Assembly (NCBI GenBank): GCA_021769965.1
Contig: JAETRU010000012.1
Span: 1,215-65,214 of the forward strand
Direction: 5' to 3'
DNA: 64,000 bases
DNA from: Eubacterium sp.
Lineage (GTDB): Bacteria; Bacillota; Clostridia; Peptostreptococcales; Anaerovoracaceae
Positions 2,708 through 45,531 of this stretch are shown here, one piece after another. The translations under genes and the position numbers were made by a program. The first letter of the stretch is position 1. Every line of letters starts with the position of its first letter. The notes below the pieces were generated by a model. The model was given only the letters and a program-made list of their open reading frames with translations. It had not been told where the DNA came from and did not search any database.

Positions 2708-3306
2708 ACCCGAAATTAAGAGGCCTTTCTGCTGTTATTTCGGACTTTGTACCGGGCTGTGAGCAGGAAGAAAGAGACCGGAAGATCATGCTGAAGTTCC
2801 TAAAGGACAACGATAATTGTCTGGAGCGGGCGAATTTAACGGCGCATTTTACAGCCTCCTCGTGGATCGTAAACGAGGCAGGCGATGGCATGGGTGACGA
2901 TAAAGTACTTATGGTCTATCACAACCTGTATAACTCCTGGTCGTGGACAGGCGGTCACGCTGACGGCGAAGCAGACCTTCTTTCCGTTGCGATCCGTGAA
3001 GCGCAGGAAGAAACCGGGGTACAGGATTTCAAAGTACTTCGGCGCGAGCCGGTTTCTCTCGAAATCATTACCGTGGACGGTCATATGAAGCGCGGCATTT
3101 ACGTGCCGTCACATCTGCATTTAAACCTGACGTATCTGCTGCAGGCTGACGAGACACAGAAGCTGTCTGTAAAGCCTGACGAAAACAGCGGAGTCGCATG
3201 GATTCCTGCCGGAGAACTTGCTGAACGTGTCAGTGAGCCGTGGATGATGAGATGGGTCTATGAGAAGCTGATGGCGAGAGTGAAGAAAGTTTTAACTGAG
3301 GATTGA
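2704..3306 (+). CDS. NUDIX hydrolase
   Basis: Nudix box GGHADGEADLLSVAIREAQEETG; ATGA overlap with miaB stop. Confidence 0.9.
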   Translation: MNPKLRGLSAVISDFVPGCEQEERDRKIMLKFLKDNDNCLERANLTAHFTASSWIVNEAGDGMGDDKVLMVYHNLYNSWSWTGGHADGEADLLSVAIREAQEETGVQDFKVLRREPVSLEIITVDGHMKRGIYVPSHLHLNLTYLLQADETQKLSVKPDENSGVAWIPAGELAERVSEPWMMRWVYEKLMARVKKVLTED

Positions 3307-4589: not shown

Positions 4590-5774
4590 ATGGCAAAGAT
4601 TGCAGATGTAATCAAGTATGAAGGAGATAACAGCACCTTTATATGGAAACATCCCAGTGAGGATTTTAACAGTTTGACACAACTGATTGTCCACGAAAGC
4701 CAGGAGGCTGTTTTCTTTATGAATGGACAGGCACTGGATTTATTCGGACCGGGCAGATATACATTGGAAACCCAGAATATTCCTAAGATCGGAAAACTCT
4801 TGAATCGCTCGACAGGAGATACAACGCCTTTTCACTGCGAGGTTTACTTTATTAATAAAACTGAACAGATGGCAATTAAGTGGGGTACTGACAGCAAAGT
4901 ACAGTACATAGAACCGACCTATGGATTTCCAATTTCTATCGGTGCTTCGGGCGAAATGAGTCTGCGGGTAGAGGATAGCAGAAAGCTTTTAATCAAGGTA
5001 GTAGGTACGGAGAGCTCTCTTGGTCAGCAGAATCTTACGACTTTCTTCCGTGGGTTTCTGATGGCTCGTGTAAAGACATATATCGCGCAGGTGATGAAGT
5101 CCAATGCGATTAATATCTTTGAAATTGACGAAAATCTGACTGTCTTTTCGGAAAACGTTCGGAATCTTTTAATAAATGATTTTGCTGATTACGGCGTCAG
5201 CCTGGAACGCTTTTTTGTAACCAACATTGTAAAGCCTGACGGTGAGCGACAGTTCGAAAAGTTCAAAGAACTGTATTTTCGCCAGTATGCTGATATTGCG
5301 GAGGCAAAGCTCCGTCAGCAGGTTGGAATCATCGACCAGCAGACCGAGGCACAGAAGATGGTGATTGAATCTCAGGCAATTGCGCAGAAACGAATGCAGG
5401 AAGGCTATACCTATCAGCAGGAAAGAGGTTTTGATGTTGCGCAGGACGCAGCTAAAAATGAGGCAGTAGGACAGTTTACCAATATGGGTATTGGACTTGG
5501 TGTCATGGGCGGCGTTGGCAGCAGTGTGGGCACTATGGTTGGCGGCGCAGTAAGCGGCGCTTTTGACGGAATGCAGGGTGTCGCAGCTGTACAGTCTGTA
5601 GGAAATACAGACACTTTTTGTGAAAACTGTGGTGCAAAGCTTGCTGCTGGTGCAGCATTTTGCGAGGAGTGCGGTATTGCCGTGCCTGTGGATACTTCAA
5701 AGTGTGTCGGCTGCGGGTTTGTCTTTGAACGTCCGGGTAAGTTCTGTCCAAAATGCGGTATGAAGAGAGGGTAG
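4590..5774 (+). CDS. SPFH/band-7 ('virion core protein'-type) protein with C-terminal double zinc ribbon, 394 aa
   Basis: LIVHESQEAVFF..GQALDLFGPGRYTL N-terminus, coiled middle, Gly-rich linker, CENC/CEEC/CVGC/CPKC; GAGGAGG RBS. Confidence 0.85.
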   Translation: MAKIADVIKYEGDNSTFIWKHPSEDFNSLTQLIVHESQEAVFFMNGQALDLFGPGRYTLETQNIPKIGKLLNRSTGDTTPFHCEVYFINKTEQMAIKWGTDSKVQYIEPTYGFPISIGASGEMSLRVEDSRKLLIKVVGTESSLGQQNLTTFFRGFLMARVKTYIAQVMKSNAINIFEIDENLTVFSENVRNLLINDFADYGVSLERFFVTNIVKPDGERQFEKFKELYFRQYADIAEAKLRQQVGIIDQQTEAQKMVIESQAIAQKRMQEGYTYQQERGFDVAQDAAKNEAVGQFTNMGIGLGVMGGVGSSVGTMVGGAVSGAFDGMQGVAAVQSVGNTDTFCENCGAKLAAGAAFCEECGIAVPVDTSKCVGCGFVFERPGKFCPKCGMKRG

Positions 5775-41380: not shown

Positions 41381-41666
41381 TCGGTACAATACAAGAATTC
41401 TCCGCAGAAAAGATGGATCATTCTGTACGGCAGCAGGTTTTACATGGCGGCTGTAGAGTAGAAAACAGCAATTGACTGTGAACAGTAATATGTATGTAAA
41501 GGCATACACAAACTTTCCAACTTTTCTGTGGCATATCGCGGAAGAGTATGATAAAATATTCCTGTTAGTGTATATTAAGAAGAGAAACGAAAGCGCGTTT
41601 CCGCGTTTCAAAGAAGAGATTTCCAGACTACGTCTGATATATTATAACCAGGAGGAATGAAGAAAC

Positions 41667-43019
41667 ATGAAATTTTATCTCGCACTGTGGTTTGCGAAAC
41701 TGATCAACGTGATCATTAACATTGTGGACAAGAGCTGCGGATCCAACTTTTCCGGGGAGAAGGCCATGCGGATCGATCCGCAGATGGTAGCTCACTTTAA
41801 GGGGATCGACTATTCCAAGGTCCTTTTTATCACCGGAACCAACGGCAAGTCCACCACGAATAACCTGATCACTCATATTTTCCGTTCAAACGGCAAGAAG
41901 GTGGTGGCCAATCTGGAAGGAGCTAATCTGATCTATGGTGTGGCTACGGCTTTATCAAAGGCTTCTACGCTGACGGGCCGCATCAAGGCGGATTATATCA
42001 TCTTTGAGACGGACGAGCGGTATCTGCCGCTGATCCACAAGCAGCTGCCTGCCGGCAACATCATGATCACCAATCTGCAGAAGGATCAGGTGCAGAGAAA
42101 CGGAGACCCGGATTTCATTTACCGCAAGATCTTTGACGGACTGCCATCGGGAATCAGATTCTTCCTCAATAACGAAGAACCGAGGACCCGTTCTTTCGAC
42201 GCCAAGTCTGATCATATCGTTACCTACGGCGTGGAGCGTCATCCGGAATCCTTTACCAAAGGCGGCAGCTTTCCGACCATGGCGTGTCCGCGGTGCAGAC
42301 ACAAGATCGTCTTTGATTATTACAACAATGACGGCGTGGGAAAATTCCACTGCAGCCACTGCGATCTGGCCAGCAGCGAGAAGGCAGATTACACGATCAC
42401 TGATGTGGACTTTGCGGGCCGCAGCTTCAAGCTGGGCGATGTGGCGTTCACGATGCCGTACGATACGCCGTATATGTGCTATAATTACGCTGGGGCGCTG
42501 GCCGTGGCAAAGGAGCTGGGCGGCATAGAGCCTGCGGACGCAGCAAAGGCTTTCGGCAGCTTCAAAAATGTGGGCGGCCGGTTTGAGATCCTGAAATACA
42601 AGGATAAGACGATCAAATACATGCGTATCAAACAGGAAAATCCAGAGACGCTGCAGACCTGTATCAACGTTATGGCGGCGGATCCTGAGAAAAAGATGAT
42701 CTGCCTGGGGCTGTGTCCTCTCATCGACATGATCCCGCATTACACCAATTCTTTCTACGCGTTTGACTGCGATCTGTCTGAGCTGGTGAAATCTGATGTG
42801 GAAAAGTATTTCTGCTTCTCGGAAGCAGTCTGCTACGATACGGCAAACCGTCTGATCTATGAAGGAGTGGACCCGTCTGTGATCTCCATTGAAGAAACGG
42901 AAGAGGTGGAGACCATTTTCCGCCAGATCGAAGAAGCGGAGACAAAGAATATTTACCTGATCACATGGCTGCATACCTTTGATCATATGAAGAAGTACAT
43001 TGAAAAGGAGGGAAAATAA
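41667..43019 (+). CDS. murT: MurT-like Mur ligase (lipid II amidotransferase ligase subunit, divergent)
   Basis: ITGTNGKSTT P-loop, CPRC/CSHC zinc finger, VGGRFE; adjacent to gatD-like gene. Confidence 0.8.
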   Translation: MKFYLALWFAKLINVIINIVDKSCGSNFSGEKAMRIDPQMVAHFKGIDYSKVLFITGTNGKSTTNNLITHIFRSNGKKVVANLEGANLIYGVATALSKASTLTGRIKADYIIFETDERYLPLIHKQLPAGNIMITNLQKDQVQRNGDPDFIYRKIFDGLPSGIRFFLNNEEPRTRSFDAKSDHIVTYGVERHPESFTKGGSFPTMACPRCRHKIVFDYYNNDGVGKFHCSHCDLASSEKADYTITDVDFAGRSFKLGDVAFTMPYDTPYMCYNYAGALAVAKELGGIEPADAAKAFGSFKNVGGRFEILKYKDKTIKYMRIKQENPETLQTCINVMAADPEKKMICLGLCPLIDMIPHYTNSFYAFDCDLSELVKSDVEKYFCFSEAVCYDTANRLIYEGVDPSVISIEETEEVETIFRQIEEAETKNIYLITWLHTFDHMKKYIEKEGK

Positions 43020-43781
43020 ATGAGAGAGTTAAGAATCGCATGGCTTTTCCCTGATACCCTGTATCTTCACGGAGAGAGAGGGAATATACTGGCATTACAG
43101 AGGATCATCGCTCTGAAAGGACTGGAAGCGGCGGTGGATCAGATCGACTTTGAAACAGAGGGCTTTGACCCGATGAATTACGATATCATCTTCTGTCCGC
43201 CGGGAGAAATCGTATCTTTTCCTGTAGTGTTAGAGTATCTAAAGCCGTTAAAGTCCAGGTTTGAGGAGTTCGTGTCCGATGGACGCCCTTTGATCGCGAC
43301 GGGAACATCTGCAGGTCTGTGGTGCCGTCAGGTGCAGCGGGCTGACGGAAGCTCCTTTGAGGCGATGGGGCTTCTGCAGGCGACAGCAAAGGAGAATGAA
43401 GCCGTTTACGGGGACGACGTGTATTTTACCTGTCAGTACGGCGGCGCGGAAATGGAGGTCCTGGGCAACCAGATCCAGATGGCGGATCTTATTTCGGAGG
43501 GCGAGGAGCCTTTCGGACGGCTGATCTACGGCTACGGCAACACGGGCAGAGACCGGCAGGAGGGATTCAGGAAGGAAAACTCTGTTTTCACCAATACTCT
43601 GGGGCCGATGCTGGTGACCAATCCGTGGCTGACGGAAAAGATCGTGGAAACGGCGGCAGAGAAGGCCGGACTTGCGATATCCGGCGGAGCGCTGGATACC
43701 AGTCTGGAGCAGAGATCCTTTGACGCGAAGAAAAAGTTTATAGCGGGCAAGACGACCCGGTTAACGAATTGTAAAGAATAG
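43020..43781 (+). CDS. gatD: GatD/CobQ-like glutamine amidotransferase subunit, catalytic residues apparently lost
   Basis: WLFPDTLYLHGERGNILAL N-terminus, GYGN, GPML..NP; G in place of the catalytic Cys and L in place of His. Confidence 0.75.
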   Translation: MRELRIAWLFPDTLYLHGERGNILALQRIIALKGLEAAVDQIDFETEGFDPMNYDIIFCPPGEIVSFPVVLEYLKPLKSRFEEFVSDGRPLIATGTSAGLWCRQVQRADGSSFEAMGLLQATAKENEAVYGDDVYFTCQYGGAEMEVLGNQIQMADLISEGEEPFGRLIYGYGNTGRDRQEGFRKENSVFTNTLGPMLVTNPWLTEKIVETAAEKAGLAISGGALDTSLEQRSFDAKKKFIAGKTTRLTNCKE

Positions 43782-43798
43782 CTTTAGGAGGAAGAAAT

Positions 43799-44062
43799 AT
43801 GGCTTTTTTGGACAAATTAACAGACGCGGCTGCAGCCATCGGCGATAAAGCCAGTGACGCAGTAGAGATCACGAAAATCAAGACAAAGATCAACGGGGAA
43901 AAGAAGGATGTTGAGGCAGAGCTGGCAAACCTGGGCCGGATCTTCTATGAGAAGGCAAAGGCAGGCGAAGCGCTGACACCGGAGGCAATGGAGATCGTAT
44001 GCCGTGTCGACGGGCATTATGATGAGATCGCGACGCTGGAGGATCAGCTGGCTCAGATTTAG
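43799..44062 (+). CDS. small coiled-coil hypothetical protein (87 aa)
   Basis: AGGAGG RBS; heptad pattern. Confidence 0.75.
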   Translation: MAFLDKLTDAAAAIGDKASDAVEITKIKTKINGEKKDVEAELANLGRIFYEKAKAGEALTPEAMEIVCRVDGHYDEIATLEDQLAQI

Positions 44063-44084
44063 CCGCGGGCGACGGAGGAAAACT

Positions 44085-44336
44085 ATGGAGAAGGAAAAAA
44101 CATGCAGGCCCTGCAGGATCAAGGCATTTCTGGAAAGAGAGCATACGCCGGCGGAGAAGGGCGTTATGGCGGCTGCCGCGCTGCTGACAGGTGTGGCGTT
44201 AGGCTTGTTTTTGGCGCCTGCCACAGACGGGATCCATCTGGAGATTTCCATCGGTTCCCATAACGGCTGCTATAACAGAGACTGCGGCAGCAATAACAGC
44301 AGCAAAAGCTTAGCTAAGAAAAAGCGGGCGAAATAA
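44085..44336 (+). CDS. small single-TM hypothetical protein (83 aa)
   Basis: GGAGG RBS; hydrophobic segment; stop lies within the 22-bp direct repeat. Confidence 0.7.
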   Translation: MEKEKTCRPCRIKAFLEREHTPAEKGVMAAAALLTGVALGLFLAPATDGIHLEISIGSHNGCYNRDCGSNNSSKSLAKKKRAK

Positions 44337-44360
44337 GTATTGAGAAAAAGGAACGGACTT

Positions 44361-44894
44361 TTATTGCAGGTTATGGCTTGCGGGGAGAGCCGTTTCTTTT
44401 TTGATATTCAGCATGTCGTACAGATATAACTTGTTATCAGCAGAATGACGAACAAGAAGCTCTGCACGAAATGTATTATAACGAATCAATTTGCCATGAT
44501 TATCAAACACGGGGAGGGCGAAACGTGTAGTATAATGATACCAGCCGTTTCTTGCATGATATTGGTGTTTGACGGCTTTGTTCGCAGTATAATATTTGTC
44601 TGAAGCAATTTTAATCATTTCTGGAAGCCCTAGAGAAGCGTTAGCTTTGGCCTTTGCGAGGGTTCCTTTTAACTTCGCAGTATATTTTGAACTGGAAAAT
44701 TCATCAGGAAAATCATTGCCGATAGAGATAAGATCGGATGTTTCTAAAATCCGATAGGCTGTACCGATATATTGTTTCAGATGATGTTCGACCTGGTTCC
44801 AGTTGATGTGCTGCCGCCCTTCAAATTCAATGTTGTGGATAAGCACTACATTTTTTCCTTGATCATCTATTATGATTTCTGTGTCTTTAATCAT
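44361..44894 (-). CDS. LPD3-like (polyvalent-protein-associated, predicted BECR-fold) protein, 177 aa
   Basis: GAGGAG RBS; FPDEF, KAKANA, GWYHY.TRF, YLYD..NIKKET motifs recalled for this family (not database-verified). Confidence 0.55.
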   Translation of the reverse strand: MIKDTEIIIDDQGKNVVLIHNIEFEGRQHINWNQVEHHLKQYIGTAYRILETSDLISIGNDFPDEFSSSKYTAKLKGTLAKAKANASLGLPEMIKIASDKYYTANKAVKHQYHARNGWYHYTTRFALPVFDNHGKLIRYNTFRAELLVRHSADNKLYLYDMLNIKKETALPASHNLQ

Positions 44895-44942
44895 GATGTC
44901 ATCTCCTCAATATTCTTGTGGAAGTAGTTTAATTGTAACATA

Positions 44943-44954
44943 GAACACATGTTC
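44943..44954. promoter_or_regulatory. LexA (Firmicutes SOS) box between the -35 and -10 of the LPD3-like gene
   Basis: GAAC-ACAT-GTTC inside minus-strand TTTACA-18-TACAAT. Confidence 0.65.
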
Positions 44955-45003
44955 TTGTAAACAAAAGATTGACAAAATGATCCGACTAAGTTAAACTATC
45001 AAT

Positions 45004-45060
45004 AGAAACGAGTTTTTAACCGTACGGCTAGCGCTTAAGCGGGGTACCCGTTTCTTTTTT
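45004..45060 (+). ncRNA. candidate ~57-nt sRNA
   Basis: TTGACA (44969-44974)-17-TAAACT (44992-44997); AGAAACG/CGTTTCT closing stem followed by a T-run; no ORF. Confidence 0.45.
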
Positions 45061-45113
45061 ATATTTATTTCCTGTAAGCCGTGTCTACGGGCGAAATAAG
45101 TATTGAGAATATG

Positions 45114-45151
45114 AAAGGGACATCGAAGCACGCATGCTTTGATGTCCCTTT
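45114..45151. terminator. bidirectional terminator
   Basis: AAAGGGACATC ... GATGTCCCTTT between convergent genes. Confidence 0.7.
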
Positions 45152-45165
45152 TATCATGTCATTTC

Positions 45166-45531
45166 CTACAGCGGAATGACCAGTTCTGTGCCGATCATCA
45201 GATTATACGGGTCGATAGCAGGGTTTGCTCCCATGATATCGTCCAGTTTTACGCCGTGTTTCTTTGCGATTAAGTAAAGTGTGTCGCCGGCTTCGACCAT
45301 GTGAACGGTCTGCTGCGGCCGGGAAGGTTCTTCTTCAGCAGGAGGCTTCGGCAGCTGGGAAGGATCGCCGGGAATGCAGAGCCTGGCGCCGATCTGCAGA
45401 TTGTATGGATTGGTGATACAGTTGACTTTCATCAGAAGAGCCACTGGCAGATCGTATTTTTCCGCGATGCTGTAAAGGGTGTCTCCGGCAGAAATCGTAT
45501 AGACGTCGACACAGACAAGTGAATGATTCAT
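45166..45531 (-). CDS. two-LysM-domain protein (possibly spore coat associated)
   Basis: YTISAGDTLYSIA and HMVEAGDTLYLIA LysM motifs, Pro-rich linker, no signal peptide. Confidence 0.88.
   Translation of the reverse strand: MNHSLVCVDVYTISAGDTLYSIAEKYDLPVALLMKVNCITNPYNLQIGARLCIPGDPSQLPKPPAEEEPSRPQQTVHMVEAGDTLYLIAKKHGVKLDDIMGANPAIDPYNLMIGTELVIPL

Follow-up and report, generated by a model that had tools for sequence, protein, structure and literature searches.

A single-gene cassette with a conserved antisense RNA element, flanked by a duplicated host gene end in a gut Eubacterium

Introduction

The DNA described here is a stretch of 64,000 nucleotides (nt) from Eubacterium sp. (GenBank assembly GCA_021769965.1, contig JAETRU010000012.1, positions 1,215 to 65,214 of the forward strand), which we call the window and to which all coordinates refer unless another locus is named. 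Between the gene for an 83-amino-acid (aa) membrane protein and a convergent LysM gene, it carries a short segment of low GC content, flanked by two exact copies of a 22-bp sequence that includes the end of the membrane protein gene. The segment holds one gene of a large protein family, together with elements of a small RNA that lies antisense to the 3' end of the gene in every family locus searched, and it is present in some strains and precisely absent from others that are nearly identical. The best explanation, which we hold with moderate confidence, is a non-autonomous module of a protein and an antisense RNA, similar to a type I toxin–antitoxin (TA) system, that arrived by recombinase-independent duplicative insertion and was afterwards subject to homologous recombination or deletion. 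The function of the RNA, the toxicity of the protein and the mode of duplication are the inferred parts of this explanation.

The repeat, the host gene and the inserted segment

The 22-bp sequence CGGGCGAAATAAGTATTGAGAA occurs as two exact copies in the window, at 44325–44346 and 45088–45109, with a spacing of 763 bp. Allowing up to three mismatches still returns just these two copies, where none is expected from 100 shuffles. The left copy, which is host-derived, overlaps the end of the forward-strand gene for the 83-aa protein (44085–44336, from its open reading frame (ORF) and translation), a protein with a single transmembrane segment whose orthologs, at 71–84% identity, are confined to a few related species. 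The last 12 nt of this host gene lie inside the repeat, which reads CGG GCG AAA TAA (the final three codons and the stop) and then 10 nt of 3' untranslated region. Beyond the core, the likeness of the arms is imperfect: 8 of the 12 adjoining nt agree, and the similarity extends to 34 nt at 88% identity. The core itself holds a small dyad, AATA-AG-TATT.

One nucleotide after the right copy begins a 20-pair hairpin with a T-run (45111–45154). This is the native bidirectional terminator, common to the 83-aa gene in the empty allele and to the convergent LysM gene (45166–45531), and a homologous hairpin is found in a sister species (L184, 5770–5805). Between the two copies lies the insert proper (44347–45087), which measures 741 bp, or 763 bp with one repeat copy, and has a GC content of 0.33–0.40 against 0.5–0.58 in the flanks. 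On its reverse strand, it encodes a 177-aa protein (44361–44894, from the ORF, the family alignment and the predicted structure), preceded by a ribosome-binding site, GAGGAG, and a promoter-like site read by motif, TTTACA-18-TACAAT with a TG (44932–44961, reverse strand). We looked within the insert for an integrase or other recombinase, for terminal inverted repeats, for a tRNA and for fragments of phage or integrative and conjugative element (ICE) genes, and found none of these.

An earlier note on this DNA, made from the letters alone and referred to below as the original prediction, had already pointed out the exact repeat with the host gene's last codons and stop, the terminator adjoining its second copy and the single opposite-strand gene with its own promoter. 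All of these were confirmed, as was its description of a discrete, integrase-less segment bounded by a duplicated 3' piece of the host gene.

Empty and filled alleles

To type alleles, public rodent-gut metagenome contigs were placed on the window region, with the runs numbered X1–X17. The empty allele is present in X5, X6, X7, X8, X9 and X11, whose contigs join 44324 to 45088 with the 22 nt shared, and in X15, where a contig reads from 44346 straight into TATGAAAGGG. Empty contigs, which come from eight rodent-gut metagenomes, leave out exactly 763 bp and keep a single copy of the repeat. The filled allele is found in X1–X4, X14, X16 and X17 and in 11 Logan contigs. Since both kinds of contig exist, the segment is a precise insertion/deletion polymorphism within one rodent-gut Lachnospiraceae species, and the empty site that the original prediction had proposed to look for, with one repeat copy before the terminator, does occur in near-identical strains. 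No empty allele accompanies the filled one in the contigs of filled-allele samples, no back-joining contig of the kind that a circular form would give is present among the assembled contigs examined, and no alternative junction at 44346 or 45088 appears in any run examined.

The strains with the empty allele are about 99.95% identical to the window over 36–41.5 kb and again over 45.1–54 kb. Between about 41.6 and 44.3 kb, they differ from it at roughly 45 sites (about 2%). This tract of about 2.7 kb (41577–44324, from tables of single-nucleotide polymorphisms (SNPs) and contig pieces) contains murT, a gatD-like gene, an 87-aa gene and the 83-aa host gene, and it ends on the right at the cassette. 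The window type of the tract is found in all filled samples and the other type in all empty ones. Because cassette status and tract are perfectly linked, the two changed together in a single event of homologous recombination, whose right end falls at the right repeat or no more than about 200 nt from it.

Two smaller observations were made along the same stretch. At the left end of the divergent tract (41577–41610), the window carries 34 bp, with a 9-bp direct repeat (AAGAAGAGA), that are missing from the empty-allele runs X5, X8 and X11; this indel contains a mini-hairpin, GAAACG-AAAGCG-CGTTTC, an echo of the outer stem of the antisense RNA described below. At position 45306, the window has a C where other filled samples (X1–X4) and the empty X5–X7 have a T; there are thus at least two right-flank haplotypes that carry the filled allele.

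The cassette protein and its family

The cassette protein has 1,342 relatives in the protein database, of which the nearest outside its own species are 55–60% identical. Family loci number 433 in GTDB genomes, nearly all in Lachnospiraceae or other Clostridia, and at least 474 in metagenome contigs, while the viral and plasmid collections contribute six IMG/VR loci, one INPHARED record and no plasmid. In the family alignment, the window protein retains every invariant residue. By sequence, the 177-aa protein has no match in Pfam, PHROGs, PADLOC or NCBIfam, nor among PDB chains.

The AlphaFold model of the protein (pLDDT 92) is a soluble alpha/beta fold. Foldseek searches of the PDB returned just weak NTF2-like matches, with a template-modeling (TM) score of about 0.27. 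Searches of BFVD returned internal domains of phage polyvalent proteins, several of them annotated as LPD3, with TMq values of 0.5–0.69 and E-values from 1e-5 to 5e-8. The Pfam LPD3 entry (PF18798) has no match to the window protein and matches 1 of 23 family members weakly (E 0.025). Going by the predicted structure, the family thus resembles LPD3 in fold, at a level below the Pfam threshold. The function of LPD3 is unknown, and solo versions of polyvalent-protein domains have been reported (Iyer et al. 2017; PMC5512222). In the domain architectures of 166 loci, the domain is fused to an N-terminal XRE helix-turn-helix (HTH) in 61 and stands alone in 78.

The scarcity of the family in phages and plasmids bears on one account of the insert, which we think very improbable: that it is what remains of a larger prophage or ICE after loss of the interior, a stump made up of attL, attR and a moron-like module. 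Low GC content and att-like repeats are what such a stump would have, and addiction-type cargo is common at prophage ends. However, the 741 bp hold no fragment of a phage or ICE gene, the family is near-absent from the phage collections and absent from plasmids, and neither repeat boundary shows an alternative junction in the runs examined. The original prediction had allowed for a remnant of a larger element and had suggested a search for larger elements with the same core. That search came back empty, as neither the JGI metagenome contigs nor IMG/VR contain the 22-mer, and the insert amounts to one module plus an orphan RNA element, so this suggestion was not upheld.

A conserved, predicted antisense RNA at the gene end

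In an alignment of gene ends from 70 loci, the last 12 or so codons (…NIKKETSTPLEP*) and about 30 nt of 3' sequence are conserved at the DNA level beyond what the protein requires. About 17 nt downstream of this conserved end stands TAT.AT, and 17 nt further on GTCAA, which on the opposite strand read as a promoter, TTGACA-17-TATAAT. An antisense promoter scoring at least 10/12 was detected at 130 of 162 family loci, compared with 9 of 145 control regions, and its spacing is 17 nt in 140 loci. The predicted RNA is about 60 nt in length and consists of one long imperfect hairpin with a terminal U-run, with the stop codon of the gene usually in the apical loop.

A covariance model of this element, R1, places it antisense to the 3' end of the gene in 86 of the 86 loci searched. 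Standard pairs make up 97.6% of its base-pair cells, and compensatory cells number 46, where shuffles give 9.5. G-U predominates at two positions on the antisense strand, where the sense strand would have C-A, which identifies the antisense strand as the one that folds. RNAalifold agrees, as the antisense-strand alignment folds and the sense-strand alignment yields no structure. A search of Rfam 15 gave no relevant match in the window region or in five canonical loci.

The arrangement has one hallmark of type I TA systems, namely an antisense RNA gene with its own promoter and terminator over the mRNA 3' end, as seen from sequence and covariation. It departs from them in the toxin, which in type I systems is a small hydrophobic toxic peptide and here is a soluble protein of 177 aa. 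We therefore make no claim of membership in type I. The RNA probably controls the mRNA of the protein by pairing with its 3' end, and the reading that we place first is that the module may work in the manner of a type I system. The combination of protein and RNA appears to be undescribed so far.

Several other assignments of the conserved end were considered and rejected. The GTCAA motif could be taken for an IS200/IS605-type end, but a −10 box at a distance of 17 nt shows it to be a −35 box, and the protein is not a Y1 transposase. An integron attC site was set aside on the same ground, with the additional points that the insert contains no IntI and that the gene has its own promoter. A type III TA system (ToxN-like) was rejected because there are no upstream RNA repeats and no fold match.

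At loci with an HTH fusion, such as L035, L037, L046, L060, L062, L066 and L082–L087, a palindrome, TCCGAATATTCGGA, abuts the −35 box of the antisense promoter. It is located about 70–90 nt past the stop codon and could be an operator to which the fused XRE domain binds.

RNA elements inside the insert

The R1 model matches the window at two places only, both within the insert. Element #1 (44347–44402, forward strand; covariance match 44332–44406, and terminator scan) is a divergent hairpin with a U-run that lies over the last codons and stop of the cassette gene. It scores 30.6 bits (E 7e-4), with a minimum free energy of −27.1 kcal/mol and a z-score of −6.4. The insert's left end coincides with the predicted 5' end of this RNA. 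Element #1 has no promoter, because the host 22-mer occupies the place where its −10 box would be expected. It starts 10 nt past the stop codon of the 83-aa gene, so it probably acts as a terminator for the host gene and is transcribed from it.

Element #2 (45004–45060, forward strand; covariance match 44987–45063, also found by nhmmer) is a canonical antisense RNA, at 67 bits (E 8e-12), situated upstream of the cassette gene. Its promoter, TTGACA-17-TAAACT (44969–44997, forward strand), is homologous to the conserved family promoter and divergent from that of the gene. The complement of the element reads ...KKETGTPLKR*, the 3' end of a family gene, and is adjoined by 27 nt of decayed coding sequence (45061–45087, reverse strand; read from the sequence). 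Together these mark element #2 as the orphan partner of a lost family gene, of which the 27 nt would be a remnant; similar remnants are found by the orphans in L080, L174 and L147. The predicted duplex between element #2 and the 3' end of the cassette mRNA has an energy of −41 kcal/mol, compared with −21.6 ± 3.5 kcal/mol in shuffles. As its sequence reads, the insert is exactly one family module plus one orphan RNA element.

We also considered retro-insertion of a read-through antisense transcript and rejected it: at the right end, the insert runs on for 27 nt beyond the U-run, and L040 and L116 are at odds with such an origin.

Family cassettes at other loci

Across the family, there is no common target, the flanks of about 140 loci representing about 90 different contexts. 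Where flanking repeats are found, they are host sequence of 22 to 214 nt. In L050 and L023, the repeat consists of 166–190 nt of the 5' region of miaB, with shorter exact remnants in L018 and L032, and in L116 it is about 100 nt long. L040 (3751–5824) has two tandem cassettes, the first degenerate, within a 214-nt direct repeat at 89% identity that carries the gene for a 42–63-aa hydrophobic peptide and its terminator. Besides the tandem array in L040, tandem copies are found in L035, L080, L082 and L180. Orphan RNA elements or pseudogene stubs lie upstream of intact copies in L019, L040, L174, L177 and L147. Repeats as variable as these are not the product of a transposase or integrase of fixed geometry. 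An insertion sequence (IS), a miniature inverted-repeat transposable element (MITE) or another transposon was rejected on this count, the flanking repeats having no fixed length, and because there are no terminal inverted repeats.

The original prediction had taken the duplication as the signature of site-specific integration by a recombinase acting in trans. A satellite of this kind, similar to a cis-mobilizable element (CIME), would have the 22-mer for its att core and would be excised and integrated as a 763-bp circle by an integrase encoded at another place in the genome or on a helper element. The exact repeat by which the host gene keeps its 3' end, the precise empty site, the small dyad in the core and the partial likeness of the arms beside it (8/12 nt) would all suit such an element. 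The wider evidence argues against it, and we consider it a distinctly unlikely account: cassettes at other loci have no common target and have flanking repeats of 100–214 nt, the core is missing from the JGI metagenome and IMG/VR viral collections, cassette status is bound to a tract of homologous recombination and contigs of filled samples have no accompanying empty allele. Given the 90 or so contexts, the variable repeats, the core's absence from those collections and the linked tract, the original prediction is not supported on this point.

A number of further features were noted at individual loci. In 14 of 80 genome loci, the family gene (at about 5001–5525) is directly upstream of miaB (L018, L019, L020, L022, L023, L025, L028–L030, L032, L041, L047, L050 and L095). 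There, a truncated duplicate of the miaB 5' end (55–60 codons, then TGAGTAA) precedes the family gene, and the miaB ribosome-binding site falls within the spacer of the antisense-RNA promoter. In L019 (4675–4760), a GC-rich, hairpin-forming insertion of about 60 nt breaks the promoter region of an orphan RNA. L055 (1100–5640) holds an array of at least five units, in each of which a leader of about 400 nt, near-identical throughout the array and containing CTTGTAAAATCGTGCGAAGCA, precedes a different gene. By eye, we take these genes to include a 364-aa DUF1016/YhcG-like protein and a 205-aa Rpn-like protein in addition to the family gene. The whole looks like a cassette array with a common 5' region.

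The orthologous site in sister species

The closest species has an 82-aa ortholog of the host protein at 84% identity, and 36 nt past the stop of that small gene lies an orphan RNA element of 77 bits. Covariance and site comparison place this element at 3285–3362 in L184 and also find it in L185, L186 and L187. Three unrelated genes, for a 162-aa membrane protein, a Crp-like regulator and a methyltransferase, separate the element from the LysM gene. At the same position, a third species (L188, about 455–535) has a degenerate element that resembles element #1. The unusual ending ...PL(K/E)R* is common to element #2 and the L184 orphan. Separately, the L185 element is chimeric, with a 3' half that resembles element #1.

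Either insertions have struck this site more than once or the module has long been resident there. Repeated hits are what att targeting by a mobilized satellite would give, but no matching att repeat was found at the sister-species loci. Old residency would mean that the module was already present in the ancestor of the species group and that the empty allele is derived, by precise deletion between the 22-bp repeats and spread by recombination. The orphan antisense RNA directly past the orthologous small gene, the degenerate version in L188 and the shared PL(K/E)R* ending all speak for this, and short direct repeats do promote precise deletion. It is nonetheless an account that we judge rather unlikely. 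It leaves a copy of host codons 740 bp downstream unexplained, and the strong conservation of the RNA element across the family makes likeness between loci a weak argument for orthology. In addition, the 22 of 22 identical positions of a non-functional copy would be unexpected if the copy were older than species about 18% apart in their flanks. Set against that divergence, the identity of the repeat indicates that the duplication itself is comparatively young.

Origin of the cassette

In the explanation that we favor, the module would have two parts. The first is a soluble protein of 174–177 aa with an LPD3-like fold, often fused to an XRE HTH domain, and the second a hairpin RNA of about 60 nt with its own sigma-70 promoter, convergent to the last 12 or so codons and the stop of the gene. 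By pairing with the 3' end of the mRNA, the RNA would make the module a selfish gene pair of an addiction or defense type. In the window, element #1 would be transcribed by read-through from the host gene, for which it would serve as terminator, and the orphan element #2, with its promoter intact, could pair with the same cassette mRNA. The 22-bp repeat would be a piece of the target duplicated in a recombinase-independent insertion. Two routes seem likely: a recircularized fragment bearing a short stretch of the target could have integrated by a single crossover, or an illegitimate joint could have formed with homology as an anchor. Integration of recircularized fragments by single crossover has given duplications of 109–950 bp in experiments (PMC3240628). 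Later, the cassette would have been moved between strains, or lost, together with flanking DNA by ordinary homologous recombination, and the repeat would also permit its precise deletion.

Several points weigh against this explanation. A repeat of 22 bp (34 bp at 88%) is very short for a RecA-mediated single crossover, and a donor with the cassette and a different right junction was not found. The SNPs fit either a gain or a loss of the cassette. The small RNA is a predicted one: none of the RNA runs carries the cassette, and the RNA contigs of L087 are unstranded. The orphan elements at the same site in two sister species could mean that the site is a specific target, and the HTH-fused form of the protein could be a regulator rather than a toxin.

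The occupation of the same site in sister species would also be explained if the conserved 3' element were itself the recombination module of a cassette system, either recombinase-independent or dependent on a host recombinase. New protein–RNA cassettes would then settle beside elements or terminators already in place, with duplication of the target, and tandem arrays and orphan RNAs would be the outcome. We consider this idea quite doubtful.

Significance

This work brings to light a large unnamed family of gut Clostridia, with more than 1,300 proteins and a conserved antisense small RNA in all 86 loci searched. Should the RNA be an antitoxin, the reach of type I-like control would include a large, soluble effector of the polyvalent-protein kind, and LPD3-like domains would gain their first functional handle. 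The window also provides a clean natural case of gene flux, in which a single-gene cassette with no recombinase has been gained or lost between near-identical gut strains. Its precise empty site and one-sided linked tract make it useful for studying the turnover of accessory genes in non-model anaerobes. In the filled allele, the host gene would be rewired, its transcript ending in the antisense RNA and probably supplying it. If the conserved element does turn out to be a recombination module, minimal mobile gene cassettes of a new kind would be at work in Firmicutes.

Comparison with known systems

In kind, both sides of the cassette are already known, namely type I-like control and integrase-less insertion between flanking repeats. 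The closest counterparts of the first are type I TA systems with a 3'-overlapping RNA, such as bsrG/SR4 and txpA/RatA of Bacillus subtilis and clostridial examples (PMC3834814, PMC6563280), in which an RNA with the same convergent promoter and terminator covers the 3' end of the mRNA. The sporadic, accessory distribution is similar, and orphan copies occur. The toxins of those systems, however, are hydrophobic peptides of fewer than 60 aa, whereas the cassette protein has 174–177 aa, is soluble and LPD3-like and is often fused to an XRE HTH. The cassette RNA, as predicted from sequence, is also short, at about 60 nt, and consists of little more than one long terminator hairpin.

CIMEs, known from work on CIME and ICESt elements of Streptococcus thermophilus, are att-flanked elements with no integrase that are mobilized in trans. 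The cassette has in common with them a short segment devoid of recombinase genes, direct repeats that include a gene 3' end and empty sites in relatives. It differs in that no cognate ICE or integrase was found with it, nor any other element with the same core in the JGI metagenome and IMG/VR collections, and in that the repeats of the family are long and variable, with no common att site.

With the integration of recircularized fragments (PMC3240628), the cassettes share a host duplication of variable length around foreign DNA, which in those experiments was 109–950 bp. Homology-facilitated illegitimate recombination (de Vries & Wackernagel 2002; Prudhomme 2002; as cited in PMC5361080) is anchored by homology on one side, which matches the divergent tract on one side of the cassette only. 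The duplication here is just 22 bp (34 bp imperfect), however, and neither process is known from Lachnospiraceae. The classical illegitimate event usually deletes recipient DNA, whereas the cassette site shows a duplication.

Arrays of orphan immunity genes in the Vibrio cholerae type VI secretion system and in Rhs and contact-dependent inhibition systems have been ascribed to homology-facilitated displacement of effector–immunity modules (PMC5361080). There, as here, the protective partner of an older module stays behind with a 3' stub of its effector gene beside a newer intact one, and tandem arrays form. In our case, the retained partner is an RNA instead of an immunity protein, and a secretion system plays no part.

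Integron cassettes resemble the family in being single-gene units of about 0.7–0.9 kb with a structured element at the 3' end of the gene and in forming tandem arrays (as in L040 and L180). The family differs in having its own promoters and no IntI or attI, and its GTCAA is spaced from a TATAAT-like box as a −35 box would be, not as an R' core. Integrons are hardly known from Firmicutes.

Finally, the LPD3-containing polyvalent proteins (PMC5512222) belong to phages and conjugative elements, whereas our family is chromosomal, lies outside virion and type IV secretion system neighborhoods, is paired with an antisense RNA and falls below the Pfam threshold by sequence. What links the two is the predicted fold of the cassette protein, which matches domains inside those polyvalent proteins.

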